Assembly: GCA_022574775.1 (NCBI GenBank)
Contig: JACZRI010000002.1
Coordinates: 10,303-74,302, forward strand
Source: Patescibacteria group bacterium
GTDB lineage: Bacteria > Patescibacteriota > Minisyncoccia > Minisyncoccales > RBG-13-36-15
Direction: 5' to 3'
DNA: 64,000 bases
A program made the position numbers and the translations under genes. The notes beneath the pieces are model-generated. The model made no database searches. It was not told the origin of the DNA and saw only the letters and a list, made by a program, of their open reading frames with translations. Of this stretch, positions 2,722 through 58,480 are shown piece after piece (the stretch's first letter is position 1; each line of letters opens with the position of its first letter).

Positions 2722-2805
2722 AACGGAATTACGAAGTCTGAAGTCTGAAGATTAGAAAATTTTATAAAATCGTTCTTCGTTTCTTCGTATTTCCTACTTC
2801 GTACT
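2722..2805. repeat. GAAGTCT / CTTCGTA word hairpin (proS-rseP spacer)
   Basis: ACGAAGTCTGAAGTCTGAAG ... CTTCGTTTCTTCGTATTTCCTACTTCGTACTTC. Confidence 0.85.
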
Positions 2806-3885: not shown

Positions 3886-3898
3886 ATCTTCCTACGAA

Positions 3899-3937
3899 TC
3901 CTTCGACTAGGTTCAGGATGGTGAGCCTGTCGAACCA
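3899..3937. repeat. REP-like element copy (inverted orientation)
   Basis: CCTTCGACTAGGTTCAGGATGGTGAGCCTGTCGAACC. Confidence 0.85.
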
Positions 3938-4716: not shown

Positions 4717-4765
4717 TTCTATTTTTGAATATAGCAAAATTTGACCCTTCTGTCGACCCAATATG

Positions 4766-4797
4766 TAAGAGTACAGGATTCGAACCCTGTACTCTTA
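4766..4797 (-). other. 12-bp hairpin with a tRNA T-loop-like apex (GUUCGAAU)
   Basis: TAAGAGTACAGG / CCTGTACTCTTA perfect stem. The loop reads GGTTCGAATCC-like on the minus strand. Lies between the holB terminator and the frr promoter. Confidence 0.7.
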
Positions 4798-4827
4798 AAA
4801 AGACTCCGGAAAAAGGACCCGAAGTCT
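4794..4827 (-). terminator. intrinsic terminator after holB
   Basis: Minus strand AGACUUCGGGU...ACCGGAGUCU imperfect stem followed by UUUUUAA. Confidence 0.6.
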
Positions 4828-4893
4828 TCTTGTTGTATCTCTTATTCGTTAGTCAGATGCAAATATTCCCGAGCTATCACCTCAGCATCTACA

Positions 4894-5918: not shown

Positions 5919-6926
5919 TTATTTCTTATCAATTATACTCTTCTTATAAATATCCAGGGTTTCAAGTACAACTCCAGTTCCTTTCACAACGCAAAACAAT
6001 GGATCGTCTGCAACAAAACATGGAACACCAGTGGAGTCAGCAATAAGTTCATCAATATTCCTCATTAAAGCTCCTCCCCCAGAAAGAATCATCCCCTTGT
6101 CCATAATATCCGCAGAAAGCTCCGGAGGAGTATCTCTTAAAACATGTTTTATCATCTGAATAATATCTGTTAAAACATCGGAAACTGCTTCACAGACTTC
6201 GTTGGAAGAAATTTTAATTGTTCGTGGCAACCCTAAGATTAAATCCCTACCTCTAATCTCAAAAAATCTTTCCTCTTTTTCCGGAACAGCGGTTCCAATT
6301 CTTATTTTAATTTCCTCAGCAGACTGTTCTCCAACAGCTAAATTATATTTTTTCTTAATGTAGTCTGAAATAGCAAAGTCCATCGCATCTCCTGCCACTC
6401 TGATTGAATTCCAAGTGACTATTCCTCCTAAAGAAATTACTGCTACTTCAGATGTCCCACCTCCGATATCAACAATTAAATGACCAGAGCAGGCATTAAT
6501 AGGAATCCCTGCTCCAATCGCTGCTAAAATTGGTTCTTTGACAACATAGACAGATCTAGCGCCGGCTGCCATTCCAGCTCCGATCACTGCCCTTTTTTCC
6601 GTAGACGTGATGCCCACTGGAACCGCTATCATTAATTCTGGCTTGAAAAAACGAAAAGATCCACCGGTTCTTTCAATAAAATATCTAAGCATAGCTTGAG
6701 CCACTCGGTAATCAGCAATCACACCATCACGTAAAGGCCTGTACACTCTGATGGTATCTGGAGTCCTGCCTACCATTTCTTTAGCTTCTGTACCTACTGC
6801 TAAAATTTTATTCTCCACAACAGAGACTGCTACCACAGAAGGTTCATTCAAAACCACCCCTTTCTTAGGAATAAACACCAGGGAATTACGGGTTCCAAGA
6901 TCAATTCCAATTTTAGAAGAAAACAC
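5919..6926 (-). CDS. mreB: second MreB-family actin-like protein
   Basis: 335-aa ORF with DLGTRNS, DIGGGTSEVAV and LSGGGALMRN motifs. Paralog of 365-1417. Confidence 0.9.
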   Translation of the reverse strand: MFSSKIGIDLGTRNSLVFIPKKGVVLNEPSVVAVSVVENKILAVGTEAKEMVGRTPDTIRVYRPLRDGVIADYRVAQAMLRYFIERTGGSFRFFKPELMIAVPVGITSTEKRAVIGAGMAAGARSVYVVKEPILAAIGAGIPINACSGHLIVDIGGGTSEVAVISLGGIVTWNSIRVAGDAMDFAISDYIKKKYNLAVGEQSAEEIKIRIGTAVPEKEERFFEIRGRDLILGLPRTIKISSNEVCEAVSDVLTDIIQMIKHVLRDTPPELSADIMDKGMILSGGGALMRNIDELIADSTGVPCFVADDPLFCVVKGTGVVLETLDIYKKSIIDKK

Positions 6927-6997
6927 TTTTGAAGTGCGAAGTAGGAAGTACGAAGAAATGAAGAAAAAGAAATCTTCAAATCTTCAGACTTCAAACT
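6927..6997. repeat. same word family in inverted orientation (mreB2-murA spacer)
   Basis: GAAGTGCGAAGTAGGAAGTACGAAG ... CTTCAAATCTTCAGACTTCAAACTTC. Confidence 0.85.
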
Positions 6998-11840: not shown

Positions 11841-12773
11841 TTATTTAAATTCTAGCCCTAATTTTTTCAAGGTTTTTTTAATTTCCTTCATTCCTTTTTC
11901 TCCCATTCCTTCTAATGCTAAAAGACTTTTTTCATCTTTTTTTATGATTCCCCCTACTGTTTTTATATTACTGCTTAATAGTGCTTTTTTGGTTCTGGCA
12001 GAAAACTTTAAATCTTCAACCTTATTTTTTGTTAAGTCATCCGTAGACTTAATTCTTTTTTCTTTTTTGGTATCGGTTTTAGTAATGGAAGGTTTAAAAC
12101 TTTCAGAAAAGATTAAAAAATGGTTGACTAAAATTTCTGATGCCTGGGAAAAAGCTTCTTCTGGAGAAATTGTACCATCTGTCTCAATTTCCATCCTCAG
12201 TCTATCAAAATCAGTTCTATCCCCAACTCGCATATTCTCAACGCGATAGTTGACTTTTTTAATTGGGCCAAAGATACTATCTAAAAGAATTACTCCGATT
12301 CTTGTCTTCTCTTTTTTTCTTCTCTCTACCGGTTCGTACCCTAACCCTTTTTCAATCTGGACCTCCATCTCCAATGAAGCTATCTTTGTTGTCAAAGTAG
12401 CTAAATGCTCATCTTTATTTACTAACTCAACCTGGGAAGATAATTTAAAATCAGAACCTTTAACCTCCTTCTCGCCTTTAATCTTCAGGGTTGCTGTCTG
12501 AGGCTCTGATGCAAAGAATTTGAACCTAAGCTGCTTTAATTTCAGCAAAATGCTAATCACGTCTTCTGAAACTCCTGGAATCGTTGAAAATTCATGTTGA
12601 ACCCCTTTAATCTTAACTTGCGTAATTGCAGCTCCAGGCAACGAAGAAAGTAAAACTCTTCTTAAAGAATTACCGATAGTTACCCCATATCCCAGGTAAA
12701 GAGCTTCTATTTCAAAAACTGCAAAATTGCCTTTTTTTTCAATGATTTTTGGCTTTAATGGCAAGGTTAACAT
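11841..12773 (-). CDS. rpoA: DNA-directed RNA polymerase alpha subunit
   Basis: RpoA NTD pattern (GYGVTIGNSLRRVLLSSLPGAAI) plus an alpha-CTD-like end. Start trimmed to ATG 12773. Confidence 0.93.
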   Translation of the reverse strand: MLTLPLKPKIIEKKGNFAVFEIEALYLGYGVTIGNSLRRVLLSSLPGAAITQVKIKGVQHEFSTIPGVSEDVISILLKLKQLRFKFFASEPQTATLKIKGEKEVKGSDFKLSSQVELVNKDEHLATLTTKIASLEMEVQIEKGLGYEPVERRKKEKTRIGVILLDSIFGPIKKVNYRVENMRVGDRTDFDRLRMEIETDGTISPEEAFSQASEILVNHFLIFSESFKPSITKTDTKKEKRIKSTDDLTKNKVEDLKFSARTKKALLSSNIKTVGGIIKKDEKSLLALEGMGEKGMKEIKKTLKKLGLEFK

Positions 12774-12984
12774 AAAAATCGATGCTAATATGCGAATCAA
12801 TACTAATTATACTGATTTAGAATTCATTCGCATTATTCGTATGTATTAGCCCCAGAACCAATCCTCACTTCGTTCGGATGGTACGGGGCAAGCATAATTA
12901 TAGGTTAACTTGTTTGGAGCTTCCTATGCCCGCCCTGTACTTCCCGACTTGTCGGGATAGTACCGGGGTATATTGGTATCGCGT

Positions 12985-13521
12985 TTATCGTGAATAAAAT
13001 TCGAAGATTGCTGGAATTTCAATTGGTAAAGAGACCTCTTCTACTGAAGGCACGCCAACAACTTTTCCTTCTAATTTCTCTTTATCTAACTCTAACCAAG
13101 AGGGCGGCTCATGTTTTTTAAGAATCATTAAAAGATTCTGAAAAATCTTTTTTTGCAATTTTTTAGGAAGAATAGTAATTTTATCGTCTTTCTTTACTTG
13201 ATAAGACGGAATGTTCACTTTTTCTTCATTCACTAAAAAATGTCCGTGATTGACTAGTTGACGCGCCTGGACGCGAGTTTTTGCAAAACCCAACCGGAAA
13301 ACAACATTGTCCAAACGGTTTTCTAATCTTTTAACCAAAAGCGTGGTAGGATCTTCAACCATTCTTCTTTTTCTTAAAACCTCTTTAACATATTTTCTGA
13401 ACTGGGCTTCTCTCAAATTATACAACTTTTTTAGTTTTTGTTTTTCTTTTAATTCTTTACCGTATTCAGATAAAGGAGCAGGTCTTCTTTTCTGTCCTTG
13501 TGAACTAGTGAATCGTGCCAC
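12985..13521 (-). CDS. rpsD: 30S ribosomal protein S4
   Basis: 178-aa GTG-start ORF with an S4 pattern and an S4 RNA-binding domain (RLDNVVFRLGFA.TR.QARQLV.HGH). Confidence 0.95.
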   Translation of the reverse strand: MARFTSSQGQKRRPAPLSEYGKELKEKQKLKKLYNLREAQFRKYVKEVLRKRRMVEDPTTLLVKRLENRLDNVVFRLGFAKTRVQARQLVNHGHFLVNEEKVNIPSYQVKKDDKITILPKKLQKKIFQNLLMILKKHEPPSWLELDKEKLEGKVVGVPSVEEVSLPIEIPAIFEFYSR

Positions 13522-13607
13522 TTATTGAAGTCTGAAGTATGAAGTCTGAAGATCTGAAGAATTTATAAAATTTCCTTCGTTTCTTCGCACTTTTTACTTC
13601 GTACTTT
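13522..13607. repeat. 86-nt word-hairpin spacer (GAAGTCT / CTTCGTA arms), copy 1 (rpsK-rpsD)
   Basis: Fills the spacer exactly from stop to GTG start. 85/86 identical to 14061-14146. Confidence 0.95.
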
Positions 13608-14060
13608 TTACACTCTTCTAACCTTAGGTGGTCGGCATCCGTTATGTGGAATAGGAGTTATGTCTTTAATAACTAAGATATCTAATCCTCTTGCAGCCAA
13701 AGACCTAATTGCTGACTCTCGGCCAGATCCTATACCTTTTACCAAAACCTCAATTCTTTCCACTCCCAATTTTTTGGCTTTCTGGACAATTCCTTCGGCT
13801 ACCTTTGATGCCGCAAAAGGAGTAGCTTTTTTTGTTCCCCTAAAGCCGATGTTGCCAGCTGAACTCCAAGCCAAAACCCTTCCCTGTAGATCGGTCAAAG
13901 TACAGATAGTGTTATTATAGCTTGTAGAAATATAAACTCTGCCTTCTTTAATCTTTTGCGAAGGCTTTATTTTAGCTTCTTTTTTAAGAGTTTGTTCAAT
14001 TTTCTCTCTTTCTTGAAGCAATTCCTCTTCAGTTTTCTCAACAATGCGTTTTTTACCCAC
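13608..14060 (-). CDS. rpsK: 30S ribosomal protein S11
   Basis: 150-aa GTG-start ORF with S11 core (NNTI.TLTD..G..L.W.S.G..GF.G.KK.TPFAA). Confidence 0.95.
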   Translation of the reverse strand: MGKKRIVEKTEEELLQEREKIEQTLKKEAKIKPSQKIKEGRVYISTSYNNTICTLTDLQGRVLAWSSAGNIGFRGTKKATPFAASKVAEGIVQKAKKLGVERIEVLVKGIGSGRESAIRSLAARGLDILVIKDITPIPHNGCRPPKVRRV

Positions 14061-14146
14061 TTATTGAAGCCTGAAGTATGAAGTCTGAAGATCTGAAGAA
14101 TTTATAAAATTTCCTTCGTTTCTTCGCACTTTTTACTTCGTACTTT
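14061..14146. repeat. 86-nt word-hairpin spacer, copy 2 (rpsM-rpsK)
   Basis: 85/86 identical to 13522-13607, and the flanking stop (TAA) and start (GTG) codons also match. Confidence 0.95.
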
Positions 14147-14536
14147 TTAGGTTGGCGCTGGTGGTAGCTTTCTTCCAGAACCTACGGTTTTGCGAACATT
14201 TCCGCGAACAGTTCTGTTGTTCGTTTTAGTTCTTTGTCCTCTTACTGGCAATCCTTTTATATGGCGAATTCCTCTCCAAGAACCAATATCTTTTAATCTT
14301 TTAATATTCACAATCTGTTCTCTGCGTAATTCTCCTTCAATTTTATAATTTTTTTCAATAACCTCTTTAAGTTGATTGACTTCAGCTGGAGTAAGCTGAA
14401 AAGCCCTTTTTGCGCGGTCAATTTTCGCTATAGTCAAAATCTTCCTACTCAAAGGTAAACCTACTCCGTAAATATAGGTTAAGGCAACTTCTATTTGTTT
14501 TTTTTCAGGGATATTAACCCCAGCAATTCTCGGCAC
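14147..14536 (-). CDS. rpsM: 30S ribosomal protein S13
   Basis: 129-aa GTG-start ORF beginning PRIAGVNIP..K....ALTYIYG.G. Confidence 0.95.
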   Translation of the reverse strand: MPRIAGVNIPEKKQIEVALTYIYGVGLPLSRKILTIAKIDRAKRAFQLTPAEVNQLKEVIEKNYKIEGELRREQIVNIKRLKDIGSWRGIRHIKGLPVRGQRTKTNNRTVRGNVRKTVGSGRKLPPAPT

Positions 14537-14619
14537 TTTAAACTATAGTTAGTAGCTAGTATTTGGTAGCTTGAGAAATCTTAATCCCAAGATACAATCT
14601 ACAAAATACAAGCTGCAAG

Positions 14620-17728: not shown

Positions 17729-19534
17729 CTACTCCAAAATTGCTTTTATCCTTCTCACCCCGGCGCCGCAAGATTCTTCTTTGTTTATTTTAAAGTTGCC
17801 CAACTCAGAAGTTTCTTCAGCATGAGGTCCACCACAAATCTCCCGAGAGAAATATTTATCTGAAGGATTTGAAGGATCACCGATAGAATAAACCGTAACA
17901 ACCTCTGGGTATTTTTCTTTAAAAAAAGCCAGAGCGCCAGATTTGATTGCTTCATCATACTTCATTTCCTTTTTTTCCACTGTTAAATCTTCCTTAATCT
18001 TTTGATTAACTAAATCTTCAACTTTTTTTATTTCCTCAAGAGTCATTTTTTGAGGATGGCTAAAATCAAAGCGCAGTCTTTCTTCAGTTATATTAGACCC
18101 CATTTGTTTCACGTGTTTTCCCAAAACCTCTCGAAGGGCCTGGTGAAATAAATGGGTCGCAGTATGTAATTTCGTTATCTTCTTGATCTCTTCTTCTGAT
18201 TTCTTAATTCGCACTTCGTACTTCGAAATTCCAACTCCTCCAAATTTTTTCTCAACTCCTGCCCTGGAAATTTCCTGGTGTTTTTTAATCGCTTGTTCAA
18301 ATCCTTCTTTATTGCGAAATTCTATTCCGTATTCTTCTGTTAATTCTTCGTCAACAAGAACGCTATGAGTTTCATACAGACGAAAAGCTTCTTCGCCGGT
18401 AATATAACCTTTCTCTGATAGTTTTTTGAATTCTTTCATTCCTTTTTCCAGCGCTTTGCCAAATTTTTCCTCTTCGTTTTGGACTATGGTTAAAATATCT
18501 GTCTGCTTGGATTGTAATTCAGGGTAAATATCTTGGTAAAGCTCAATTACTATCTTAGCTAAGGAAACTAAGGAATGCTTAGGTAAATTGAGTGATTTAC
18601 CGAACCTAATTGCTTTTCTTAACACTCTTCTCAAAACATACCCTTCTGCAACATTAGAAGGCAATACCCCCTCACCTGCTAAAAAAACAGAGCCATTAAT
18701 GTGGTCTGCGATAATACGGTAGGCTCTTTTATTTTGATCATAGGATTTAGATGTATTTTTTTCTATCTCTTTAATAAGCGGCGTGAATAAATCTGTCTCA
18801 AAAATAGAAGGCTTTTTTTGGATAACCATAGCTAACCTTTCCAAACCCATCCCGGTGTCTACACCTTTCTTTTTCAAAAGAGTTAAATTATTTTTTCTGT
18901 CATGATAATATTCATTGAAAACTATGTTCCATAGTTCAATAAATCTTCCACAGCCACAATTGGGAATACAATTTTTTCCTTTTTCGCAAGGCTTATCTCT
19001 CAGCTCATAATGGATCTCAGTGGTTGGCCCGCAAGGCCCCTCGTCGCCAGTTGGCCCCCAGAAATTTTCCTCTTTACCAAACCCATAAATTTTTTCTTTA
19101 GGAATGCCTAATCTCTGCCAAATTTCCCTCGATTCTTTGTCTTCGGATATCTCCTTCTCGCCCTTGAAAACAGTAATCCATAATTTTGAATTTGGGATCT
19201 GGAATTCGGAATTTAAGAGTTCTCTTGCGAATTCTATTGCCCTTTCCTTAAAGTAATCGTTAAAGCTAAAATTTCCGAGCATCTCCAAAAAAGTTAAGTG
19301 CTGCTCATCTCCAACATCTTCAATATCAGAAGTTCTGAAACATTTCTGAACTGATACTACTCTCTTTCCATAAGGTGAGATTTTTCCCAGATAATAATCC
19401 TTGAACTGCTGCATACCAGCCGTGGTAAACAAAACTGTAGAATCCTCAGATAAAAGCGAACTTGAGGGAACAATAGTATGTCTATGTTTTATAAAAAAAT
19501 CTAAGAATTTTTTTCTTATCGTGTATGAATCCAT
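17729..19534 (-). CDS. alaS: alanine--tRNA ligase (short, ~601 aa)
   Basis: AlaRS core (FF..H.H..V.SSSL...D.T.LFT.AGM..FK) and editing-domain HxxxH/CGG motifs. The ORF-track N-terminal 34 aa were rejected (start ATG 19534). Confidence 0.92.
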   Translation of the reverse strand: MDSYTIRKKFLDFFIKHRHTIVPSSSLLSEDSTVLFTTAGMQQFKDYYLGKISPYGKRVVSVQKCFRTSDIEDVGDEQHLTFLEMLGNFSFNDYFKERAIEFARELLNSEFQIPNSKLWITVFKGEKEISEDKESREIWQRLGIPKEKIYGFGKEENFWGPTGDEGPCGPTTEIHYELRDKPCEKGKNCIPNCGCGRFIELWNIVFNEYYHDRKNNLTLLKKKGVDTGMGLERLAMVIQKKPSIFETDLFTPLIKEIEKNTSKSYDQNKRAYRIIADHINGSVFLAGEGVLPSNVAEGYVLRRVLRKAIRFGKSLNLPKHSLVSLAKIVIELYQDIYPELQSKQTDILTIVQNEEEKFGKALEKGMKEFKKLSEKGYITGEEAFRLYETHSVLVDEELTEEYGIEFRNKEGFEQAIKKHQEISRAGVEKKFGGVGISKYEVRIKKSEEEIKKITKLHTATHLFHQALREVLGKHVKQMGSNITEERLRFDFSHPQKMTLEEIKKVEDLVNQKIKEDLTVEKKEMKYDEAIKSGALAFFKEKYPEVVTVYSIGDPSNPSDKYFSREICGGPHAEETSELGNFKINKEESCGAGVRRIKAILE

Positions 19535-19554
19535 ATATAGAGCCCTGCATCGAG

Positions 19555-19824
19555 CTAGGAGCGCAGGGTTCGAACCACCAGAATCAATTGAGCGAAGCGA
19601 ATTCAGGCAAGATTCGAGGCGCGAGGAGTGATGCAATGCCGAACGACGAGCAACAAAGAAGCTTGCCTGAATTCACCCGCCCCTAAAGGAAGCTGAAAAA
19701 TGGCTGATTTCTTTGTTGCTCCTCCTTGAAGTAGTTTCCAACTACTCTTTCGTCGTCGCGTCGTGAAATCACCTCATTTTTCAGTTTCTCAAGCTGATTT
19801 TGGTTCAAATCCTGCGCTCCTAAG
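19555..19824. repeat. ~270-nt nested-palindrome element directly upstream of alaS
   Basis: Outer imperfect ~35-bp arms (19555-19592 / 19788-19824) enclose two hairpin domains (13-bp GAATTCAGGCAAG/CTTGCCTGAATTC and 10-bp CTGAAAAATG/CATTTTTCAG). Confidence 0.85.
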
Positions 19825-21499: not shown

Positions 21500-22330
21500 C
21501 TACTTCATTGCTTCAGCTAAGGCTCCAGCAATGGCTGCCAGGGCTTTAGCCCGCAAATAAGGATCGCTGATCTCAGCTGCTGCCTTGCGGGCTTGCTCAA
21601 AGTCTTGAGCTTCCTGAGTAACTCCAGCAATAGCTGCCAGGGCTTTAGCCCGAAAATTAGCTACGCTGATCTCAGCTGCTGCCTTGCGGGCTTGCTCAAA
21701 GTCCTGAGCTTCCTGAGTAACTCCAGCAATGACTGCCAGGGCTTCAGCCCGCCAATAAGGATCGCTGATCTCAGCTGCTGCCTTGCGGGCTTGCTCAAAG
21801 TCCTGAGCTTCCTGAGTAACTCCAGCAATGACTGCCAGGGCTTCAGCCCGAAAATTAGCTACGCTGATCTCAGCTGCTGCCTTGCGGGCTTGCTCAAAGT
21901 CCTGAGCTTCAGCTAAGGCTCCAGCAATGACTGCCAGGGCTTTAGCCCGCAAATAAGGATAGCTGATCTCAGCTGCTGCCTTGCGGGCTTGCTCAAAGTC
22001 CTGAGCTTCAGCTAAGGCTCCAGCAATGACTGCCAGGGCTTCAGCCCGCCAATAAGGATCGCTGATCTCAGCTGCTGCCTTGCGGGCTTGCTCAAAGTCT
22101 TGAGCTTCAGCTAAGGCTCCAGCAATGGCTGCCAGGGCTTCAGCCCGCAAATTAGCTACGCTGATCTCAGCTGCTGCCTTGCGGGTTAAATTCAAGACTT
22201 TATTAAAGATCCGAGGAAAAGCGATTTTCTGAGCATTCTCAATAAGCTCTTGTATCGCCTCTCCTGTGATTTTCCCTTCGGCTATCTGACCGAAAAACTC
22301 GCAGAGTTGCCTTACCGTAACAATTGACAT
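21500..22330 (-). CDS. Ala-rich tandem-repeat protein (7 x 33 aa alpha-solenoid-like), function unknown
   Basis: Start set at ATG 22330, preceded by AAAGGAGGT. A 51-aa unique N-terminus is followed by 7 repeats AAAEIS-xxxx-RA[EK]ALA[AV]IAG[ALAE/VTQE]AQDFEQARK. It has its own promoter-like site and terminator, and is GC-richer than its flanks. Confidence 0.8.
   Translation of the reverse strand: MSIVTVRQLCEFFGQIAEGKITGEAIQELIENAQKIAFPRIFNKVLNLTRKAAAEISVANLRAEALAAIAGALAEAQDFEQARKAAAEISDPYWRAEALAVIAGALAEAQDFEQARKAAAEISYPYLRAKALAVIAGALAEAQDFEQARKAAAEISVANFRAEALAVIAGVTQEAQDFEQARKAAAEISDPYWRAEALAVIAGVTQEAQDFEQARKAAAEISVANFRAKALAAIAGVTQEAQDFEQARKAAAEISDPYLRAKALAAIAGALAEAMK
21503..22180 (-). repeat. 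99-bp tandem repeat array (7 copies, last truncated)
   Basis: Period measured from recurring GCTTGCTCAAAGTC (21591 vs 21690, and onward). Copies differ only in a few discrete blocks. Confidence 0.95.
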
Positions 22331-22422
22331 GGCTGTACCTCCTTTGTACAATTTGACCAAGATTTATTATCCCAATGCACTCCCACCAGCACAATAAGAC
22401 ATTCGAACCCTGGCCTATTTCA

Positions 22423-23029: not shown

Positions 23030-23069
23030 ATTGATTAAAATATCGTAGCAAATTTAAAGAAGAAGTCAA

Positions 23070-23132
23070 CCCACCCCACCGCAATGGTTCGACAAGCTCA
23101 CCATCCTGAGTTTATCGAAGGAGCGGTGGGGC
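23070..23132. repeat. REP-like palindromic element (GGTTCGACAAGCTCACCATCCTGAG..TCGAAGG family) inside a CCACCGC/GCGGTGG clamp
   Basis: Family copies or half-copies at 3899-3937, 15207-15250, 23086-23122, 28087-28113, 51266-51307 and 62231-62268. Confidence 0.85.
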
Positions 23133-23146
23133 TTGCCGTCGAAGTG

Positions 23147-23917
23147 TCAAGAAACTGATTTAACGATCTTAATAAATTCTTTCGCTTTCAAAGACGCTCC
23201 TCCTATTAATAAGCCCTGGAAATCAGCTTCAAAAATGTAAGGTTTTGCATTTTGGCTGTTTACACTCCCTCCATAGAGAATTGAGAGATTTTCTGCGAAT
23301 TTTTGATTATAGATATTTGAAACAGTACTTCTGATGAAATCGCCCGCTCTCTTTGCTTCAGCTGGAGAACAAGCCTTTCCTGTGCCAATTGCCCAGATTG
23401 GTTCGTAAGCAATGACGAAGTCTGAAGTATGAAGTCTGAAGTCTGAAATTTTCTCCAGAGCGTTCGTAAGTTGTCTTTTTAATATTTCTTTTGTTTTACC
23501 CTTTTTTCTTTCTTGCTGGGTTTCGCCGATACATAAGATAGGATTTAGTTTTGTAGCGAGGGCTGTTTTTAATTTTTTATTTACCACTTCATCTGTTTCA
23601 TTAAAATACCTTCGCCGTTCAGAATGGCCAATGATAACATATTGACAGCCTAAATCTTTGAGCATCTTAGAAGAAATTTCTCCAGTAAAAGCTCCTTTTT
23701 TCTCCCAAAAAACATCTTGCGCCCCCAATTTAATGGAGGTCCGACCTCCATTATTTAATAAAGGTAAATATATAAACGGTGGGCAGATTACTACTTCAGT
23801 ATTCTTAATATCCTTCAATCCCTTACCCACAGAATCAAAAAGCCGCTTGGCTTCAGCCAATGATTGCGGGTTCATCTTCCAGTTTGCGACAACAATTGGT
23901 TTGTTCATAGATTGCAT
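23147..23917 (-). CDS. tpiA: triosephosphate isomerase
   Basis: VANWKMN, IGHSERR and AYEPIWAIGTG motifs. Alternative start at 23908. Carries an in-frame word-repeat insertion at 23414-23448. Confidence 0.93.
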   Translation of the reverse strand: MQSMNKPIVVANWKMNPQSLAEAKRLFDSVGKGLKDIKNTEVVICPPFIYLPLLNNGGRTSIKLGAQDVFWEKKGAFTGEISSKMLKDLGCQYVIIGHSERRRYFNETDEVVNKKLKTALATKLNPILCIGETQQERKKGKTKEILKRQLTNALEKISDFRLHTSDFVIAYEPIWAIGTGKACSPAEAKRAGDFIRSTVSNIYNQKFAENLSILYGGSVNSQNAKPYIFEADFQGLLIGGASLKAKEFIKIVKSVS

Positions 23918-28072: not shown

Positions 28073-28086
28073 TTTATGATTCGGCA

Positions 28087-28113
28087 TGCTCACCATCCTG
28101 AGTTTACCGAAGG
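28087..28113. repeat. REP-like half element spanning the adk stop / map upstream junction
   Basis: GCTCACCATCCTGAGTTTACCGAAGGA. It supplies the adk stop codon context. Confidence 0.8.
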
Positions 28114-28805
28114 ATTACTTTTAAAATATCTTTAAAAACTCCCTCTACTGACTGCTTCCCCTCAATTTCTTTTACTTTTAATCCTTGTTTTCTAAATAAC
28201 CCAATCAGAGGAAAAGTTCTCTCTTTGTATTCTTTCAGTCTTATTTTAATAATTTCCGCATTATCATCCCTGCGCACTACTAATTTTGAGCCGTCCAAAG
28301 GGCATTTTTTTAATTTAGTGGTTTCTTTTGTGTATAAAACTGGGTGGCGCATTAATTCGCAACTTCTTCTATGAGAATTCCTCAAAATTGAGTCTTTACC
28401 GCTTAATTTAATCAGGATTACTTTAATGTTTTTTGCTCCGTACAATTTTTTTAAAAGCGGGATTAATTCTTTCCCTTCATAGAGTGTCCTTGGAGATCCT
28501 GAAGTCACTATTCCATTTTCCTCTTTTGCCAGCTCTCTGATTTTATTTTTTGTCCAAAATGTAATTAACGGCGGGCTCATCAATACTCCTGATTCTCTCA
28601 ATCGTTTTTCTTTTGAAAGAAAATATTTTTTATTATTTGCCGTTACAAAGTCGTTTTTTTTTGCTTTTGCTAAATTTTTCTCAATTATCTCGCTTGTCTC
28701 TAAATGATAAGAGTCTAATTTCTCTGACAAAAGCTCTGCCTGTGTTCCTTTTCCAGATCCCGGCGGACCCAAAAGAATTATTACTAATTTTTTGCTTTCT
28801 GGCAT
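28104..28805 (-). CDS. adk: adenylate kinase
   Basis: P-loop LLGPPGSGKGTQA and canonical position after secY. The last codons (ILR-stop) are encoded by a REP-like half element. Confidence 0.88.
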   Translation of the reverse strand: MPESKKLVIILLGPPGSGKGTQAELLSEKLDSYHLETSEIIEKNLAKAKKNDFVTANNKKYFLSKEKRLRESGVLMSPPLITFWTKNKIRELAKEENGIVTSGSPRTLYEGKELIPLLKKLYGAKNIKVILIKLSGKDSILRNSHRRSCELMRHPVLYTKETTKLKKCPLDGSKLVVRRDDNAEIIKIRLKEYKERTFPLIGLFRKQGLKVKEIEGKQSVEGVFKDILKVILR

Positions 28806-32802: not shown

Positions 32803-32882
32803 TTGAAGTCTGAAGTCTGAAGTCTGAAGACCTGAAGATTTTTATTCTTTGTTTCTTCGTACTTCGTACTTCGTATTTAATT
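32803..32882. repeat. GAAGTCT / CTTCGTA word hairpin (rpsH-rpsN spacer)
   Basis: (GAAGTCT)x3 GAAGACCTGAAG ... (CTTCGTA)x3. Confidence 0.9.
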
Positions 32883-33068
32883 TTACCAGCTACTTTTCTT
32901 AATTCCTGGTATCTCAGCTTTATTTGCCATTTCTCTAAAACATATACGGCATAATCTAAATTTTCTCATGTATCCTCTTTTTCTTCCACATCTAAAGCAC
33001 CTACGGACAATCCGAGTTGAAAATTTTGGTTTTCCAAGCGACTTTAAAATTTGTGATTTCTTCGCCAT
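32883..33068 (-). CDS. rpsN: 30S ribosomal protein S14, Zn-ribbon (type Z)
   Basis: 61-aa ORF with [20 protein letters not shown]. Confidence 0.95.
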
Positions 33069-34021: not shown

Positions 34022-34100
34022 TTTTAGTTTTTTCGCGTCTAGCGCCTAGTTTTTGATTATCATTTTTCTAAACACCTAGTCCTTAGAAGCTAGAAGCTAA

Positions 34101-36283: not shown

Positions 36284-36366
36284 GTTGAATTACAAAATAT
36301 GAAGCATGAAGATCAAAGGATTTTTAAATATCTTTCTCTTTTTTTCGTACTTCGTACTTCAGACTA
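36284..36366. repeat. GAAG-word hairpin (rpsC-rplV spacer)
   Basis: ATGAAGCATGAAGATC ... TTCGTACTTCGTACTTCAGAC. Confidence 0.8.
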
Positions 36367-39281: not shown

Positions 39282-39487
39282 GTTTTGTAGAAGCGGGTTT
39301 ACGCGGATCTAAAGGAAGTCAGACTCCCCTCTAAAGACTTTCTTGAAGCAAGGGTAAGCTCCTCAAAGAGCATCTCGGAGCCCCAGACAGCATGGTCCCG
39401 CCCAGGGCGGGTGTCGGGGTGAGAGTTGAACAGCAATTTCTCGCTGGGAAATTGACTGTGTCTCTTTGATGGGGCTTACCCGAGCGC
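39282..39487. repeat. GC-rich structured element filling the rplC-rplD spacer
   Basis: 206-nt spacer with hairpins CCCGCC/GGCGGG, GCTCC/GGAGC and CAATTTC-TCGCTGG-GAAATTG. The last is homologous to 45317-45341. Confidence 0.8.
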
Positions 39488-42029: not shown

Positions 42030-42242
42030 AAAAATATAATCCTAATCTACTGATTTATCCGAATGCTACAAATTAATTATTAGGATAATTCGGATGTAAT
42101 TCGTTGATTGGAATTACTTTAAGTTATATTATTATTCTACTCAACTAAAAAAAATAGTCAACCTTTTGATAGACTCAAGGTTAACATTGAATCTGGGCTT
42201 TGACTGAACTCAGTTAAAGCCTCGAAACGTCAAGTAACTTAA

Positions 42243-42271
42243 ATCATAGCAAATATTCTTTATTGAGTCAA
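42243..42271 (-). promoter_or_regulatory. putative tuf promoter
   Basis: Minus strand TTGACT (42271-42266), 17 nt, then TATGAT (42248-42243). Confidence 0.5.
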
Positions 42272-42341
42272 CATTCCTTTTGTATCAAACCTTTTGTATC
42301 AAAAATATCGAATGAAGTCAAAGAATTTGTAGTGGATTATT

Positions 42342-42420
42342 CTATCTCCTTTTCCCTTCTATAATCTCTTGTGCGATATTCTGAGGGACCTCCTCATATT
42401 TGTCGAATTCCATTGTAAAG
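42342..42420 (-). pseudogene. orphan duplicate of the fusA 3' end (last ~26 codons plus stop)
   Basis: 42358-42420 is identical to 42577-42639. It continues GAA GGG AAA AGG AGA TAG, which also encodes EGKRR-stop. No upstream reading frame is attached. Confidence 0.85.
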
Positions 42421-42576
42421 TCGCTCGCTCAGCTCGCTCTTTAGACACCTCTCGGTTTCTAACGTTTCCGCCTCAGCGGCGGAAGCCTGTTTTCCTACAC
42501 GGGAAAACACCCAGTTTTCCCGACCCCTTTCTGCTTTACGATGGAATTATTCTGAAAAAATCAACGCCTCTTGCCC
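42421..42576. repeat. GC-rich structured element inserted behind the fusA stop
   Basis: Hairpins GGGAAAAC/GTTTTCCC and TTCCGCC/GGCGGAA. Shares the ACACGG...CCCGACCCCTTTCTG and GGTTTCT(A/T)ACGT blocks with 45395-45542. Confidence 0.8.
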
Positions 42577-44666
42577 TCTATAATCTCTTGTGCGATATTC
42601 TGAGGGACCTCCTCATATTTGTCGAATTCCATTGTAAAGGTTCCTCTGCCTTCTGTCATTGATCTTAAAGATGTTGCATAGCCAAACATTTGAGCTAAAG
42701 GAACTTTTGCATCAATTACTTTAAGATTCAATCTGTCTTTTGTTTCCTCTATCTTTCCTCTTCTCGTTGCCAAATCCCCAATAGTATCTCCAAAAAATTC
42801 AGAAGGAATGGTCACTTCCAGACGCATTATCGGTTCAAGCAAAACGGGCTTTGCTCTTTTAGAGGCTGTTTGCAAAGCCATGGATGCTGCTATCTTAAAA
42901 GCAATCTCCGAAGAATCAACGTCGTGGTAAGAACCATCATATAAAATTGCCTCAATGTCAACCATAGGGTAACCCGCAACAACACCTCTTTCCATAGCCT
43001 CTATCACCCCTTTTTTCACGGCAGGAATGAACTCTTGAGGGATAGTTCCTCCCTTAATTTCATTAGTAAACTCAAACCCGTCTCCTCTTTCCTTAGGTTT
43101 CAAACGCAAGAACACATGACCATACTGACCCCTCCCCCCTGTCTGTTTGATGTATTTTCCTTCAGCAAAAGATTCTCCTTTGATTGTTTCTTTATAGGCA
43201 ACTTGCGGCCTTCCAACTGCAACTGAAACCTTAAACTCCCTGCGCATTCTATCATTGATTATCTCTAAATGCAGCTCTCCCATTCCAGAAATAATAGTTT
43301 CTCCAGTCTCCAAATCACTTTTAACTTTAAAAGTTGGATCCTCTTCAGCTAATTTTTTTAATGCCATGCCCATCTTCTCTTGGTCTGCTCTCGTTTTTGG
43401 CTCAATGCGAATTGAAATAACTGGTTCCGGGAATGAGATTTTTTCCAAAACAATCGGAGAATTCAAATCGCAAAGAGTATGACCAGTAATGGTTTTTTTC
43501 AGCCCAAGGGTCGCAGCAATATCTCCAGCAAAAAGCTCTTCTACTTCTTCACGTTCTGCAGCATGCATTCTTAAAATCCTCCCAATTCTTTCCTTCTCAC
43601 CAGTGGTTGGATTTAATAAATAAGATCCTTTTTGCAAAAAGCCTGAATAAACACGGAAATAATTCAAAGTTCCAACATAAGGGTCAGAAGCTGTTTTGAA
43701 AACTAAAGCTGAAAAAGGCTCTGAATCTACGGCCTTCCTCTCAATTTCCTGACCAGTTTTCGGATCAGTTCCTTTCACTGGAGGCAAATCAATTGGGCTT
43801 GGCAGAAAATCCACGACTCCATCCAAAAGAAGTTGAACTCCTTTATTTTTCAACGCTGATCCACAAAATACCGGAATGATCTTATAGTCAACGGTGGCAG
43901 ATCTCAACACATCCCTTAATTCATCAACTGAAATTTCTTTTTGAGCTAAGTATTTTTCCAAAAGCTTTTCGTCTTCAGCTGCGATTTTTTCCACTAATTT
44001 CTCTCGCCATTCTTCTGCCTGTTCTTTTAAATTTTTAGGTATCTCTTCTTCAACGATATTCTGACCGAAATCGCCATCAAATTTTATTGCTTTTTGCGTT
44101 AAAAGATCAATCACTCCTTCAAAATTTTCTTCAGCTCCAATCGGTATTTGAACAGCCACTGCATTAGGAGATAATTTTTCCAAAATTGATTGCAGGCTCT
44201 TTTCAAAAGAAGCTCCCATTCTATCAAGTTTATTAATAAAACAAATTCTCGGCACCTCAAACTTATCTGCTTGATGCCAAACAGTTTCTGACTGGGGTTC
44301 CACTCCCGCAACTCCGTCAAAAATTACTACTGCCCCGTCTAAAACCCGCAAGGATCTCTGAACTTCAGCGGTAAAATCAATGTGGCCAGGAGTATCAATA
44401 ATGTTAATCCTATGCTCATTTGCTTTTTTTCTTTCCAAATCCCGAGGGGTCCAAAAACAAGTGGTGGCTGCCGCCGTAATGGTAATTCCCCTTTCTCTTT
44501 CCTGTTCCATCCAATCCATAATAGCTGTGCCCTCATGAACCTCTCCAATTTTATGAGAAATCCCGGTATAAAAAAGCACCCGTTCCGTAACGGTTGTTTT
44601 TCCAGCGTCTATGTGAGCAATGATGCCAATATTACGAGTCTTTTCAACAGGATATTGCCTTGGCAT
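42561..44666 (-). CDS. fusA: elongation factor G
   Basis: 701-aa ORF with AHIDAGKTT and DTPGH motifs and EF-G domains II-V pattern. Confidence 0.98.
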
Positions 44667-44712
44667 GATTTTTGTATCTTGTATTTTGTATTTCTTTAAT
44701 GAGCTTTTGCTC

Positions 44713-44741
44713 TTGACAAATTTGAAGTATGGGTTTATAAT
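44713..44741 (+). promoter_or_regulatory. consensus sigma70-type promoter of cassette A
   Basis: TTGACA (44713-18), 17 nt, TATAAT (44736-41). The 23-nt block CTTGACAAATTTGAAGTATGGGT is identical to 50230-50252. Confidence 0.75.
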
Positions 44742-44782
44742 GGAAACAGCTATTTCAATATTCGAAAAGGAAGGAGGAAACA

Positions 44783-45118
44783 GTGGTTACTAAAACAAGG
44801 CTAGATCCGGCAAGAGCTAAGAGATACATTCTTGCTGGCCAGTCCATGCACAATATGATCATCGAGGGGAACCTGGATCTCTCTGGTGAAATCTTCGAAA
44901 AAGATATATACCTCTTTGACGTAACCATCAAAGGAGATCTGGATCTCAGAGATGCAATCATCCTGGGGAGTTTGCAACTCCAACGTGCGACCATCAAGGG
45001 AGATATGAACCTCGCCACCAAGTCTGGACCAACGAAGATCATCGTGAGTCCTGCAATGGCTGAACAGGTCCGCCAGCTGGCACCTCCCCACGTCCATATT
45101 GAAGTTCAAGCGGAATAG
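44783..45118 (+). CDS. cassette A: 111-aa hypothetical protein with short beta-solenoid-like repeats
   Basis: GTG start 5 nt after GGAAGGAGG. Repeats [10 protein letters not shown] / [10 protein letters not shown] / [10 protein letters not shown] / [12 protein letters not shown]-richer than neighbours, opposite strand to all flanking genes, with a terminator right after the stop. Confidence 0.6.
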
Positions 45119-45133
45119 CTAACCAAAGTCCCT

Positions 45134-45168
45134 AGCAGGCGGACTCTAAATGCCTGCTTTTTTATTTT
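45134..45168 (+). terminator. intrinsic terminator of cassette A
   Basis: AGCAGGC / GCCTGCT stem followed by TTTTTTATTTT. No T-run in the opposite direction. Confidence 0.8.
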
Positions 45169-45169
45169 C

Positions 45170-45542
45170 AATCTACCACGCCAAATTACGAGTAAACTCT
45201 ACACGAGTCCGGAACTCGTAATAATAAACCCTTAGAGCGAGGCAACTGCTAAAAAGGACATCCGCAGGCTCGCGGCCATGGTATCGCTGAAGGCGACGAG
45301 CGAGTCGAGGACTAAGCAGAATTTCTCGGTGGGAAATTCTGTGGTCCTTTGAAGCACGTTGCCGAGCGTTTTATCAGGCCAAATGGTCGCTTCGCCAGAT
45401 ACCGTACGGTACCTGGCTTCGCCACGCTGACGTGGCTCCGCTTCTAAAACACCTTCGGTTTCTTACGTCACTCTTCGGGCTCCTATTTTTCCAACACGGA
45501 GAGATATTCAATCTCCCCGACCCCTTTCTGTGCCATTTTGCC
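45170..45542. repeat. composite GC-rich structured intergenic element abutting the rpsG stop
   Basis: Several hairpins (e.g. CAGAATTTC/GAAATTCTG at 45317-45341 and CCAGATACC/GGTACCTGG). Modules are shared with 39282-39487 and 42421-42576. Confidence 0.8.
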
Positions 45543-47581: not shown

Positions 47582-47653
47582 ACGGGGTGTAGTATAATGG
47601 TTATTATGCAGGGCTGGGGGTCCTGTGATTTGGGTTCAATTCCCAGCACCCCG
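47582..47653 (+). tRNA. tRNA-Pro (anticodon GGG)
   Basis: Hand-folded: acceptor CGGGGTG/CACCCCG, anticodon stem CAGGG/TCCTG with loop CTGGGGG, T-arm TTGGG-TTCAATT-CCCAG, discriminator A. No encoded CCA. Confidence 0.85.
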
Positions 47654-47802
47654 ACTATTATAAATATCTTACTTTTATCTATTGCTGTATAAAATTAAAA
47701 ATGTCAAGTCTTATTGCCAATAAATTTATTATGGAAACTCTAAAAAAATTTACCACGAAAAAAATTAACTTGGTTTTTTAAAATAAATGAATACGACAAA
47801 AC

Positions 47803-50176: not shown

Positions 50177-50230
50177 TGGTTTTATTATAATTGAGTTAAG
50201 AATTATTTAAAATAAAAAAATGCCAACTCC

Positions 50231-50259
50231 TTGACAAATTTGAAGTATGGGTGTATGAT
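50231..50259 (+). promoter_or_regulatory. promoter of cassette B (paralog of the cassette A promoter)
   Basis: TTGACA (50231-36), 17 nt, TATGAT (50254-59). The 23-nt block is identical to 44712-44734. Confidence 0.75.
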
Positions 50260-50305
50260 TGAAATAAGTTCGACGGGATTAGTCAAATAGGAAGGAGGAA
50301 CGCAA

Positions 50306-58266: not shown

Positions 58267-58480
58267 AAAAAAAATCCCACTTCGAGTGGAATAAACCTAT
58301 CCAGACTGTCCAGCCTGGACTAAACTTCTCCTTTGCTCGAAGGTAGAGGTTAAAAATATTGTGCCCACTTCGTAAAACTTCAGAAGGCAAGGATGGTATT
58401 CTGACTTTCACAGTTACGGCATAGTCCCGGATTTTCACCGGCGTTCCCCATCCACTGTTAAGGTTCGTTAGTATAGGATA
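58267..58480 (-). promoter_or_regulatory. cobalamin (B12) riboswitch
   Basis: Minus strand GGAUGGGGAACGCCGGUGAAAAUCCGGGACUAUGCCGUAACUGU core and B12-box-like AGUCAGAAUACCAUCC (58386-58406). A hairpin plus U8 abuts the AUG. Confidence 0.85.

Follow-up and report, generated by a model that had tools for sequence, protein, structure and literature searches.

Why should the two spacers on either side of a ribosomal protein gene be almost the same sequence? The locus in question lies in a 64-kb stretch of a Patescibacteria (Parcubacteria-type) genome (hereafter, the window), where the gene order around rpsK is that of the conserved alpha operon and rpsM, rpsK and rpsD are all encoded on the minus strand. 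An earlier note had described rpsK as bracketed by a duplicated 86-nt spacer, and we confirmed this description. The two copies are identical at 85/86 positions (13522-13607 versus 14061-14146), the sole mismatch being T at 13531 versus C at 14070 on the plus strand. The identity reaches 93 nt when it is extended in both directions (13518-13610 versus 14057-14149, 92/93), and beyond these limits similarity falls to background at once on both sides. On the mRNA strand, each copy is laid out as the TAA stop codon of the upstream gene, 86 nt, the GTG start codon of the next gene and a G; the predicted N-termini of S11 (MGKK..) and S4 (MAR..) agree with the GTG starts. The copies are direct repeats 539 bp apart. 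No other pair of 93-nt sequences matched with up to 25 mismatches in the 64 kb, and chance is therefore ruled out as the source of the duplication. We refer to the 86-nt sequence, which begins with AAAGTACG and ends with CTTCAATAA, as module A.

Table 1. Genes, codons and hairpin modules of the window (positions in the window; genomes with L numbers are introduced in the text).
Feature	Position	Strand	Remarks
rpsM	14147-14536	-	upstream of rpsK in the operon
rpsM TAA stop	14147-14149	-	opening 3 nt of the repeated unit
Module A, rpsM-rpsK spacer	14061-14146	-	derived, recent copy; 85/86 identity to 13522-13607
rpsK GTG start	14058-14060	-	within the repeated unit; ATG in L001, L163, L164, L165, L166 and L167
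rpsK (S11) CDS	13608-14060	-	flanked by both module A copies; Pfam Ribosomal_S11
rpsK TAA stop	13608-13610	-	opens the second repeat
Module A, rpsK-rpsD spacer	13522-13607	-	older, orthologous copy; orthologues occupy this junction in L164, L166 and L167
rpsD GTG start	13519-13521	-	closes the second repeat
rpsD	12985-13521	-	
Module A paralogue, rpsN-rpsH spacer	32803-32886	-	nhmmer E = 9e-19; 81% to focal copy excluding gaps
Module A paralogue, between M50 peptidase and class II tRNA synthetase genes	2722-2805	-	nhmmer E = 8e-21
Module A paralogue, diverged	36284-36366	-	nhmmer E = 4e-9
Module A paralogue, reversed relative to its operon	6927-6997	+	nhmmer E = 1e-14
Module A 3' arm fragment within the tpiA CDS	23416-23454	-	25-nt exact match CTTCAGACTTCATACTTCAGACTTC
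Module B cassette (TAA-ACG...TTTTT-ATG), rpsD-rpoA spacer	12774-12984	-	~118-nt GC-rich element nested inside
Module C hairpin, rpmJ-rpsM spacer	14537-14619	-	older; common to outgroup L001

The window is a metagenome-assembled contig, assemblers can be misled by repeats, and the contig of one related strain (L162) begins within a hairpin module; one of the two copies might thus be a product of misassembly. However, a second ENA assembly of this strain, L081 (99.94% identity over 8 kb), was made separately and likewise contains both copies. L081 retains the A/G difference by which the two copies are one base apart, and it has lost three nucleotides by slippage (TTC, window 13559-13561), a private change confined to the rpsK-rpsD copy. 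Further, the name of the L081 contig (k141_1232429) suggests a 141-nt k-mer, which would be longer than the 93-nt repeat, and an additional assembly, produced in a different project, matches the adjacent 11.4 kb at 99.99% identity. An assembly artefact is therefore unlikely to lie behind the duplication, and that either copy was itself created by misassembly seems extremely improbable.

Module A forms a long imperfect hairpin that spans ~79 of its 86 nt. The arms are runs of ~7-nt words (ACGAAGU, four times, against CUUCAGA, five times), and in the hairpins the words pair with regularly spaced internal mismatches. The units are degenerate, with a 4-5-nt core and a variable linker, and many different words occur within one genome. 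The folding energy of the RNA was -23.6 kcal/mol for the rpsM-rpsK copy (z = -3.9; ssDNA z = -3.3) and -22.3 kcal/mol for the rpsK-rpsD copy (z = -3.1). RNA of the antisense strand of module A folded with a z of -4.4, and as ssDNA the module gave a z of about -3.4. The 3-nt deletion in L081 removes the apical helix.

The other modules extend over 60-140 nt. A single hairpin covered at least 60% of the spacer in 24 of 26 cases, beginning a median of 3 nt past the stop codon and ending 6 nt ahead of the start codon. The median unpaired flank was 11 nt, versus 29±5 nt in shuffles, and the summed ΔG of the spacers was -358 versus -202±13. A periodicity of 7/8 nt was confined to the spacers (0.381/0.354 versus a baseline of ~0.28 and 0.27 in coding sequence), and autocorrelation peaks at lags 7 and 14 were likewise detected in spacers only. 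The pattern is clade-wide, as indicated by 235 spacers with a lag-7 autocorrelation of 0.331 and a median z of -2.6, compared with 0.299 and -1.2 in non-CPR controls. Shine-Dalgarno-like motifs preceded only 7 of 76 genes.

As a test for selection at the RNA level, folding of the sense and antisense strands was compared over 23 spacers; there was no strand asymmetry (-335 versus -343 kcal/mol), which fits a palindrome at the DNA level. Paired positions of module A were almost invariant, with one double change, and their covariation was no better than that of shuffles. Across the A family, variable columns numbered 13 of 50 in the paired word cores versus 25 of 36 in the linkers (P = 8e-5). The greater conservation of the cores could reflect functional constraint, and anchoring of the alignment on the repeated cores could equally yield this difference.

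We then compared the junctions with those of related strains. GTDB and JGI scans with S11 gave relatives of at most 85% identity, and closer strains were obtained through protein searches and contig look-ups; each is represented by a single short metagenomic contig, that of L162 starting within a module, as mentioned above, and that of L164 being chimeric downstream. In the nearest outgroups (rpsK 78% identical at the nucleotide level), both junctions are merely 2-5 nt long, namely TAA-TT-ATG and TAA-AATT-ATG in L001 and 3 and 5 nt in L165. In the species complex, in which rpsK is 91-96% identical to that of the window, the rpsK-rpsD junction contains module A in the window, L164, L166 and L167, module B in L162 and module F in L163. 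Module A was found at rpsM-rpsK in the window only; the same junction contains module B in L166 and L167, a C-like module in L162, module E in L163 and module D in L164. Four or five unrelated hairpin modules occupy rpsM-rpsK across the species complex. The start codon of rpsK is GTG solely where module A or C precedes it.

Because module A occurs at rpsM-rpsK in the window strain only and at rpsK-rpsD in four lineages, the upstream copy is derived and very recent. Its single differing base (G) is also derived relative to all rpsK-rpsD orthologues. The rpsK-rpsD cassette is the older copy, common to four lineages of the species complex, and on these sequence comparisons the rpsM-rpsK copy is a very recent copy of it. 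The two focal copies differ at 1 of 86 positions, as against 10-14% (86-90% identity) for the orthologues of module A at rpsK-rpsD in L164, L166 and L167, which bears out the earlier proposal of a recent duplication; identity at third codon positions of rpsK among the strains was 79-91%. The earlier note had also raised the possibility that the two spacers co-evolve as a pair, an idea to be abandoned if sister genomes had unrelated sequences there. The sister strains do carry unrelated sequences at rpsM-rpsK (B, C, D and E, not A), and two of six differ at rpsK-rpsD too; co-evolution as a pair is therefore not supported.

The window contains six full copies of module A, all of them intergenic, together with fragments; beyond the window, the family was found in the species complex only. 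As a side observation, the fragment in tpiA costs the protein just 2 additional amino acids compared with solved TIMs. Module B begins with ACGCGATACC and ends with GCATCGATTTTT, the ends of its core being CGATAC...GCATCG. L162 has it with the same flanks at rpsK-rpsD, as do L166 and L167 at rpsM-rpsK, so that the flanks TAA-A(C/G)G...TTTTT-ATG are alike at three different junctions. The corresponding rpsD-rpoA site is empty in L162 and L163 (TAAACG directly followed by TTTTTATG), and nested insertions are present inside module B. Across divergent lineages, family B sits at different junctions and retains ~75-85% identity among lineages whose S11 proteins are just 50-77% identical, a conservation that is hard to explain without a sequence-reading trans factor (transposase or recombinase) or selection. 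Module C gave a sub-threshold match to Alpha_RBS, and the C-like module upstream of rpsK in L162 resembles it at 83% over 65 nt. L097, an independent genome, has a pair of its own at rpmJ-rpsM and rpsD-rpoA, with 84/88 identity that is bounded precisely by TAA and ATG and with unrelated flanking coding sequences; in L015, a repeat begins at the stop codon. These comparisons show that a cassette moves together with its flanks, as far as the stop codon on one side and the start codon on the other.

Searches for known elements returned little. No consensus terminator or promoter site was detected in the modules, and scanning for rho-independent terminators gave none in either focal copy; their AU-rich stem is interrupted by internal loops, and AAUAAGUG forms the tail. 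Module A had no Rfam match at the gathering score, at which the matches in the window were one tRNA and an AdoCbl-II riboswitch only; in permissive mode it obtained just a chance-level miRNA match (E = 0.79). The survey of mobilising genes covered the 64 kb and ~15 kb of genome in extensions. Pfam identified no transposase, RAYT or integrase among the 40 non-ribosomal ORFs of the window. The extensions also had no RAYT, and their sole recombinase was a tyrosine recombinase of the Phage_integrase family, possibly Xer-type, ~13 kb past the window. A 20-mer of module A was absent from viral contigs. Phage carriage was considered and rejected, the 20 matches to a 17-mer of module B not extending to the module and being due to chance. 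Integron attC sites were likewise rejected, given that GTTRRRY occurs on neither strand of module A, the genes follow the alpha operon order and the window has no integrase. Target-site duplication was dismissed as a general signature, since TAA...TAA surrounds only the two focal copies and is lacking from the remaining copies of A, from module B and from the L097 pair. In the searchable literature, which is incomplete, we found no prior description of such elements in CPR/Patescibacteria.

We conclude, with a probability of roughly 0.6, that the focal spacers are copies of module A, which would belong to a larger set of REP/MITE-like hairpin cassettes that lie between genes and are copied whole from junction to junction. 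These cassettes appear to be widespread in the densely packed operons of same-strand genes in this genome, spanning the gap from stop to next start, and the focal pair would reflect rapid gain and loss of DNA that is selfish or driven by mutation, as opposed to a conserved regulatory signal. At the DNA level, the entire stop-to-start spacer would have been copied non-reciprocally into the neighbouring junction. DNA that readily forms hairpins makes forks stall and favours the use of an ectopic or intrastrand template. A replication fork stalled at the hairpin may have given rise to the copy, either by template switching or by an event akin to gene conversion. The only sequences common to both junctions, a left-hand TAA and a right-hand TGG, could have acted as microhomologies, and with TGG at that end the GTG start would have been carried along. 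Subsequently, slippage would alter the number of words, as in the TTC deletion of L081, and modules may lose their hairpin cores, leaving flanks behind, or receive nested insertions. Note that template switching is read from the boundaries only, that neither copying machinery nor an intermediate was seen and that a microhomology of 3 nt is very short.

At the RNA level, the insert would fold on itself in the polycistronic mRNA and keep stop and start spatially close, which may be why insertion is tolerated in an organism largely without Shine-Dalgarno sites. A positive role of the RNA (mRNA stabilisation, processing or coupling) is unproven. A more far-reaching proposal is that the operons of Patescibacteria contain a class of stop-to-start cassettes of heptad words not described before, that these are copy-pasted by their stop and start bounds and are more than tolerated, that folding brings the stop codon next to the start codon and could let terminating ribosomes re-initiate across the hairpin without a Shine-Dalgarno site, and that the module together with the choice of ATG or GTG tunes ribosomal-protein stoichiometry. 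Such re-initiation would be a bacterial counterpart of ribosome shunting in caulimoviruses; we consider the proposal as a whole unlikely and offer it as speculation.

Module A may instead be a MITE that was moved in trans by classical non-autonomous transposition, entering both junctions independently from a recently active master. The filled and empty sites, the nested insertions, the multi-copy families, the inverted A copy and the conservation of family B over divergent lineages at differing junctions all speak for this. However, there is no consistent target-site duplication, and the copies have their flanks in common as far as the stop and start codons, in spite of ancestral gaps that were not the same (TT versus AATT). 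Neither transposase, RAYT nor integrase was found among the 40 non-ribosomal ORFs, with only the Phage_integrase-family recombinase in the extensions. Further, the same gap of 2-5 nt would have been struck four or five times over within a single species complex, which requires extreme target specificity. Classical transposition is thus unlikely. A different possibility is that selection holds the copies identical as a cis-regulatory RNA needed before both rpsK and rpsD, to which RNase III, a ribosomal protein or a translation factor, for example, would bind. This agrees with a significant hairpin that directly follows the stop codon and leaves 6 nt to the start codon, with paired cores conserved above linkers and with the weak likeness of the neighbouring rpmJ-rpsM hairpin to the S4-binding Alpha_RBS.

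Nevertheless, a regulatory RNA appears quite improbable, since the outgroups L001 and L165 lack the element at both junctions, strains with 95-96% identical rpsK have unrelated hairpins instead, the orthologues have diverged by 10-14% where third-codon-position identity is 79-91%, a deletion abolishing the apical helix is tolerated, and there is no covariation beyond that of shuffles, no folding advantage of the sense strand and no Rfam family. The earlier suggestion of strong selection on an exact sequence fails on the same evidence, namely spacers missing from the nearest outgroups, orthologues at 86-90% identity versus 79-91% at rpsK third positions, and the L081 deletion. Concerted evolution, in which continuing gene conversion maintains the likeness of two A spacers that are long-standing paralogues at the two junctions, would suit near-identical direct repeats just 539 bp apart. 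Yet no sister strain has module A at rpsM-rpsK, and in the two assemblies of the same strain neither the A/G difference nor the private 3-nt deletion has been homogenised, making this account very improbable. Of the earlier view that the hairpins are functional or homogenised units and not filler, active copying is upheld by the families, the filled and empty sites, the nested insertions and the moves between junctions, and homogenisation is not.

The cassettes have several implications. CPR/Patescibacteria genomes are assumed to have little non-coding room, yet the most conserved operon is here broken at nearly every junction by hairpin cassettes, whose turnover between strains outpaces that of synonymous sites. 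This turnover would amount to a natural archive of DNA copying driven by hairpins, with whole spacers moving together with their start codons. The cassettes provide a high-resolution strain marker, and annotators and assemblers should be aware that contigs break in the modules and that start codons change with them. Further, they offer a testable system for translation coupling across structured spacers in polycistronic mRNAs without Shine-Dalgarno sites.

Among known systems, the REP/BIME elements of enterobacteria and pseudomonads are short imperfect palindromes, present in many copies and co-transcribed within or after operons, with proposed roles in mRNA stabilisation and in the translation of neighbouring genes; REPs are 20-40 bp long and associated with RAYT (IS200/IS605-like Y1) transposases. 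The modules are similar in being intergenic-only imperfect palindromes with many dispersed copies (six full copies of A in 64 kb) and with occupancy that differs between related strains; like REP/BIME elements, the cassettes are co-transcribed with adjoining genes, and the proposed roles are similar. Unlike REPs, the modules are ~60-90 nt long (~79/86 nt paired in module A, not 20-40 bp), consist of ~7-nt words, and belong to several unrelated families, and no RAYT was seen in the window. A conserved GTAG or CGTC tetranucleotide at one end serves as the REP tag (PMC3733652), and modules A and B have no such terminal tag.

MITEs (Correia, ERIC/IRU, RUP and BOX) resemble the modules in being non-coding, hairpin-forming and multi-copy between genes, in their nested insertions and in their filled and empty sites among relatives, here the empty rpsK junctions of L001 and L165 and the empty rpsD-rpoA site of L162 and L163. 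Correia elements of Neisseria and ERIC elements are co-transcribed and are known RNase targets. In contrast to MITEs, the modules have no evident target-site duplication or cognate IS and bring donor flanks with them as far as the stop and start codons. The inverted repeat expected at the termini of a MITE extends over the whole of module A, which is one hairpin of tandem words, not two terminal inverted repeats and a core.

Tandem heptanucleotide repeats are known as STRR in cyanobacteria, and long simple-sequence repeats (LSSR) are of a comparable type. The TAACTGA heptamer repeats of Beggiatoaceae are intergenic and often lie directly before start codons, and their role is not known (PMC4679880). 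The modules share with heptanucleotide repeats the 7-nt unit in head-to-tail arrays (CUUCAGA-type, five; ACGAAGU-type, four), the intergenic position and the quick change of copy number by slippage. However, heptanucleotide repeats are one-stranded direct arrays of a single unit, lacking a complementary partner, whereas the modules pair one array with a complementary array of degenerate units into a hairpin. Quasipalindrome template-switch events are known to involve a few to tens of bases inside one quasipalindrome. Such switching at quasipalindromes or microhomologies would resemble the movement of the modules in its non-reciprocal, sharply bounded replacement and would differ from it in scale, as here an 86-nt cassette appears to have moved from one junction to another.

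Every gene of the rpsM-rpsK-rpsD-rpoA region lies on the minus strand, and the sequences at 13518-13610 and 14057-14149 were identical at 92/93 positions. On the mRNA strand, each repeat comprised a TAA stop codon, 86 nt, a GTG start codon and one G; the two 86-nt spacers proper were 85/86 identical, and similarity fell to background at once beyond the ends of the 93-nt repeat. When up to 25 mismatches were allowed, no further match to the 93-mer was detected in the window. Both copies, distinguished by the same A/G difference, were also present in L081, a second ENA assembly of this strain that is 99.94% identical to the window over 8 kb. Further, L081 lacks one TTC of TTCTTC (window 13559-13561), a private 3-nt deletion confined to its rpsK-rpsD copy. 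The bracketing of rpsK by near-identical spacers, as claimed in the earlier note, was thus confirmed, and given both copies and the private deletion in L081, it is very unlikely that either copy arose as an assembly artefact.

Genes, full-length family A copies and GC-rich structured elements in the window
Feature	Position	Strand	Remark
rpsM	14147-14536	minus	
rpsK	13608-14060	minus	
rpsD	12985-13521	minus	
rpoA	11841-12800	minus	
Family A copy	13522-13607		rpsK-rpsD spacer
Family A copy	14061-14146		rpsM-rpsK spacer
Family A copy	2722-2805		
Family A copy	32803-32886		
Family A copy	36284-36366		
Family A copy	6927-6997		inverted orientation
GC-rich structured element	4762-4893		
GC-rich structured element	23030-23146		
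GC-rich structured element	39282-39487		
GC-rich structured element	42030-42560		
GC-rich structured element	45043-45542		
GC-rich structured element	~12850-12965		nested

The source organism is a Parcubacteria-type Patescibacteria bacterium. The outgroup contigs had practically no spacer at rpsM-rpsK or rpsK-rpsD: the junctions were TAA-TT-ATG and TAA-AATT-ATG in L001 (the GTDB representative; rpsK 78% identical in nucleotides and 85% in amino acids) and 3 and 5 nt long in L165 (rpsK 78% identical in nucleotides). In more distant Patescibacteria, these spacers ranged from 1 to ~210 nt, with hairpins of words quite unlike those of the window. S4 (rpsD) of the window, L001 and L165 has 178 aa, begins MARFTSSQ... 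and lacks the N-terminal zinc-finger-like segment CKICRRLG, which is present in the ~205-aa S4 of most other Patescibacteria relatives. For closer relatives, five S11 variants were obtained by protein search and their contigs were then fetched.

Spacer modules at the two rpsK junctions in the window and closer relatives
Contig	rpsK nucleotide identity	rpsM-rpsK	rpsK-rpsD
Window		module A	module A, GTG start
L166 / L167	96%	module B + nested 47-nt insert, same sequence in both assemblies	module A, start GTG / ATG
L162	95%	C-like module	module B, TACTAAT/ATTAGTA words
L163	95%	module E, A-rich	module F, GC-rich GATCCGCG words
L164	91%	module D, CTAG words	module A, GTG start

The module A orthologues at rpsK-rpsD were 86-90% identical to the window copy. 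The C-like module of L162, at which that contig begins, was 83% identical to the window rpmJ-rpsM spacer, and module D of L164 was 82% identical to window 34022-34100. Since the relatives carry other modules at rpsM-rpsK, the module A pair is confined to the window strain among the relatives compared. Further, the sole distinguishing base of the rpsM-rpsK copy, a G, was derived with respect to every rpsK-rpsD orthologue. Together, these observations indicate that the rpsK-rpsD copy served as the template for the rpsM-rpsK copy, long after the strains split.

Several other features of this locus were noted. The rpmJ-rpsM hairpin is older, as L001 also has it, and a similar module lies upstream of rpsK in L162. 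GTG is the start codon of rpmJ, rpsM, rpsK and rpsD in the window; in L001, rpsM, rpsK and rpsD have ATG instead. Alpha_RBS is the S4 autoregulatory site; window 14504-14612 (minus; rpmJ-rpsM spacer and rpsM start) gave a sub-threshold Rfam match to it (25.2 bits, gathering score 38; E 0.004 in a 2.6-kb scan), a score owed in part to conserved rpsM 5' coding sequence. Contig L164, a probable chimera, turns to unrelated high-GC sequence at ~position 1690, ~45 nt into rpsD, and contig L162 starts (position 1) within a hairpin module. This suggests that hairpin repeats break or mis-join metagenome assemblies.

Either strand of the module A spacer folded into a single long imperfect hairpin. The folding energies were -22.3 and -23.6 kcal/mol for the sense RNA of the two copies (z -3.1 and -3.9) and -26.5 kcal/mol for the antisense RNA (z -4.4), and ssDNA folding gave z of about -3.4. 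The arms are arrays of ~7-nt words, ACGAAGU/AAAAAGU/GCGAAGA/AACGAAGG facing UUCUUCAGA/UCUUCAGA/CUUCAUA/CUUCAGA/CUUCAA, with 2-3-nt internal loops between helices of 4-6 bp. Such spacers are not peculiar to rpsK. Of the window's 26 same-strand spacers of 44-98 nt, 24 had a single hairpin spanning at least 60% of their length, which started at a median of 3 nt past the stop codon and ended 6 nt before the start codon. Total folding energy was -358 kcal/mol (shuffles, -202+-13), and the median unpaired flank was 11 nt (shuffles, 29+-5). Base autocorrelation in the spacers peaked at lags 7, 8 and 14 (0.381, 0.354 and 0.347 vs ~0.28), peaks not detected in the coding sequence of the window. Word families coexisting in the window include GAAG/CTTC, TAGC/GCTA, AAACAT/ATGTTT and TTAGAAA. 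Across 121 Patescibacteria-type loci (235 spacers), lag-7 autocorrelation was 0.331 and median folding z was -2.6, compared with 0.299 and -1.2 in spacers of other phyla; heptad-word hairpin spacers are thus a clade-wide phenomenon.

The window holds six full-length copies of family A, and family A fragments also occur in coding sequences. Heptamer word arrays of family A were observed within tpiA (23416-23454, with a 25-nt exact match to the 3' arm of module A), gatC (88-127) and ORF 17729-19636 (18200-18239; the homologue matches tRNA-synt_2c); these arrays fall in variable loops of the proteins, where they lengthen the chain by only ~2 residues compared with solved structures. A 286-aa ORF (21500-22360, minus), with no significant Pfam domain, contains six tandem copies (85-96% identical) of a 99-nt (33-aa) repeat at 21523-22207.

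Module B occupied three junctions: rpsD-rpoA in the window, where a ~118-nt GC-rich element is nested within it, rpsK-rpsD in L162, and rpsM-rpsK in L166/L167. Its flanks were constant at all three, TAA-A(C/G)G...TTTTT-ATG, amid unrelated adjoining coding sequences, and L162 and L163 had an empty rpsD-rpoA site, TAAACG|TTTTTATG. The shared flanks and the empty site show that the mobile unit is the entire stop-to-start spacer, whose hairpin core can apparently also be lost while the flanks stay. The module A pair, in which the match extends from TAA to GTGG, agrees with this pattern, and rpsK starts with GTG only in the window (after A) and L162 (after C), with ATG in all other relatives. The cassette pattern recurs in an independent genome, L097 (S11 73% identical): its rpmJ-rpsM and rpsD-rpoA spacers match at 84/88 positions, and the match runs precisely from TAA to ATG. 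A repeat in L015 likewise started at the stop codon, and L163 had module F at two junctions. Family A was found solely within the species complex, and family B in several divergent lineages at differing junctions.

GC-rich, very stable structures form a second element class in the 37% GC window. One motif, CCCGACCCC, recurs at 42490-42533 and 45487-45530 and in the rpsM-rpsK spacers of L090/L091; another, TTCGACAGGCTCACCATCCTGA, recurs at 3886-3937, 23084-23122 and 28076-28114. At 42348-42639 (minus), where fusA (EF-G) ends and its downstream spacer begins, a ~146-nt GC-rich structured element is flanked by a pair of 73-nt direct repeats (96% identical) of the gene's 3' end. Both encode ...IIEGKRR-stop with synonymous differences, and it looks as if the original gene end was displaced by insertion and then restored by a copy. 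The window also contains a promoter-like 35-nt sequence (TTGACA...TATAAT type) twice, 5.5 kb apart (44712-44746 and 50230-50264; 91% identical), two MreB/Mbl paralogues 4.5 kb apart (365-1417 and 5919-6926) in this small CPR genome, and an AdoCbl-II riboswitch (58392-58452, minus) upstream of a DUF4430/DUF6580/B12-dependent ribonucleotide reductase/corrinoid adenosyltransferase cluster. One tRNA (47583-47654) lies on the opposite, plus strand.

The comparisons indicate that a stop-to-start hairpin cassette was recently copied, non-reciprocally, into the adjacent junction, and that cassettes are quickly replaced, lost, hit by nested insertion and changed internally by slippage. We infer that the copying is a DNA-level process and favour, at forks stalled by the hairpin, either template switching or an event resembling gene conversion. 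The sole sequences common to donor and recipient junctions, TAA and TGG or ATG, would then be used as microhomologies, and selection would keep only copy events with both reading frames intact. The main rival is classical MITE transposition of the modules, which would account for the empty sites, the nested insertions and the conservation of module B across lineages. However, target-site duplication was not consistent, donor flanks were shared between copies, and a scan of 40 non-ribosomal window ORFs found no transposase, RAYT or integrase, while in ~15 kb outside the window the sole recombinase was a tyrosine recombinase of the Phage_integrase family, possibly Xer-type.

These results support the interpretation in the earlier note in part: recent duplication and units under active copying were upheld, whereas neither selection for one exact sequence nor co-evolution of the two copies was. 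RNA-level selection on the hairpins was not demonstrated: family A showed no covariation because paired positions are almost invariant, sense and antisense strands folded roughly equally, A orthologues were 86-90% identical vs 79-91% at rpsK third codon positions, and the helix-destroying deletion in L081 is tolerated. Against pure neutrality, word cores were better conserved than linkers over family A (P=8e-5), and hairpins fill spacers more tightly than chance. Between tightly coupled genes, self-folding inserts alone may be tolerated, as folding would hold stop and start near each other. SD-like motifs (GGAG/GAGG/AGGA/AAGG at -18..-4) preceded only 7/76 window genes.

Neither A copy contained a promoter or terminator consensus, and terminator identity was rejected on the latter ground; attC identity was also rejected, as was Rfam family identity, no family matching module A. 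An incomplete literature search, which leaves novelty unproven, turned up no earlier account of hairpins of this type from Patescibacteria. Unlike REP elements, the cassettes are of the wrong size and without the GTAG/CGTC tag; unlike MITEs, they have no target-site duplication; and they are paired arrays, whereas STRR-type repeats are single direct arrays. The cassettes nevertheless behave as REP/BIME elements and bacterial MITEs do, and they share a 7-nt unit with heptanucleotide repeats (PMC4679880).
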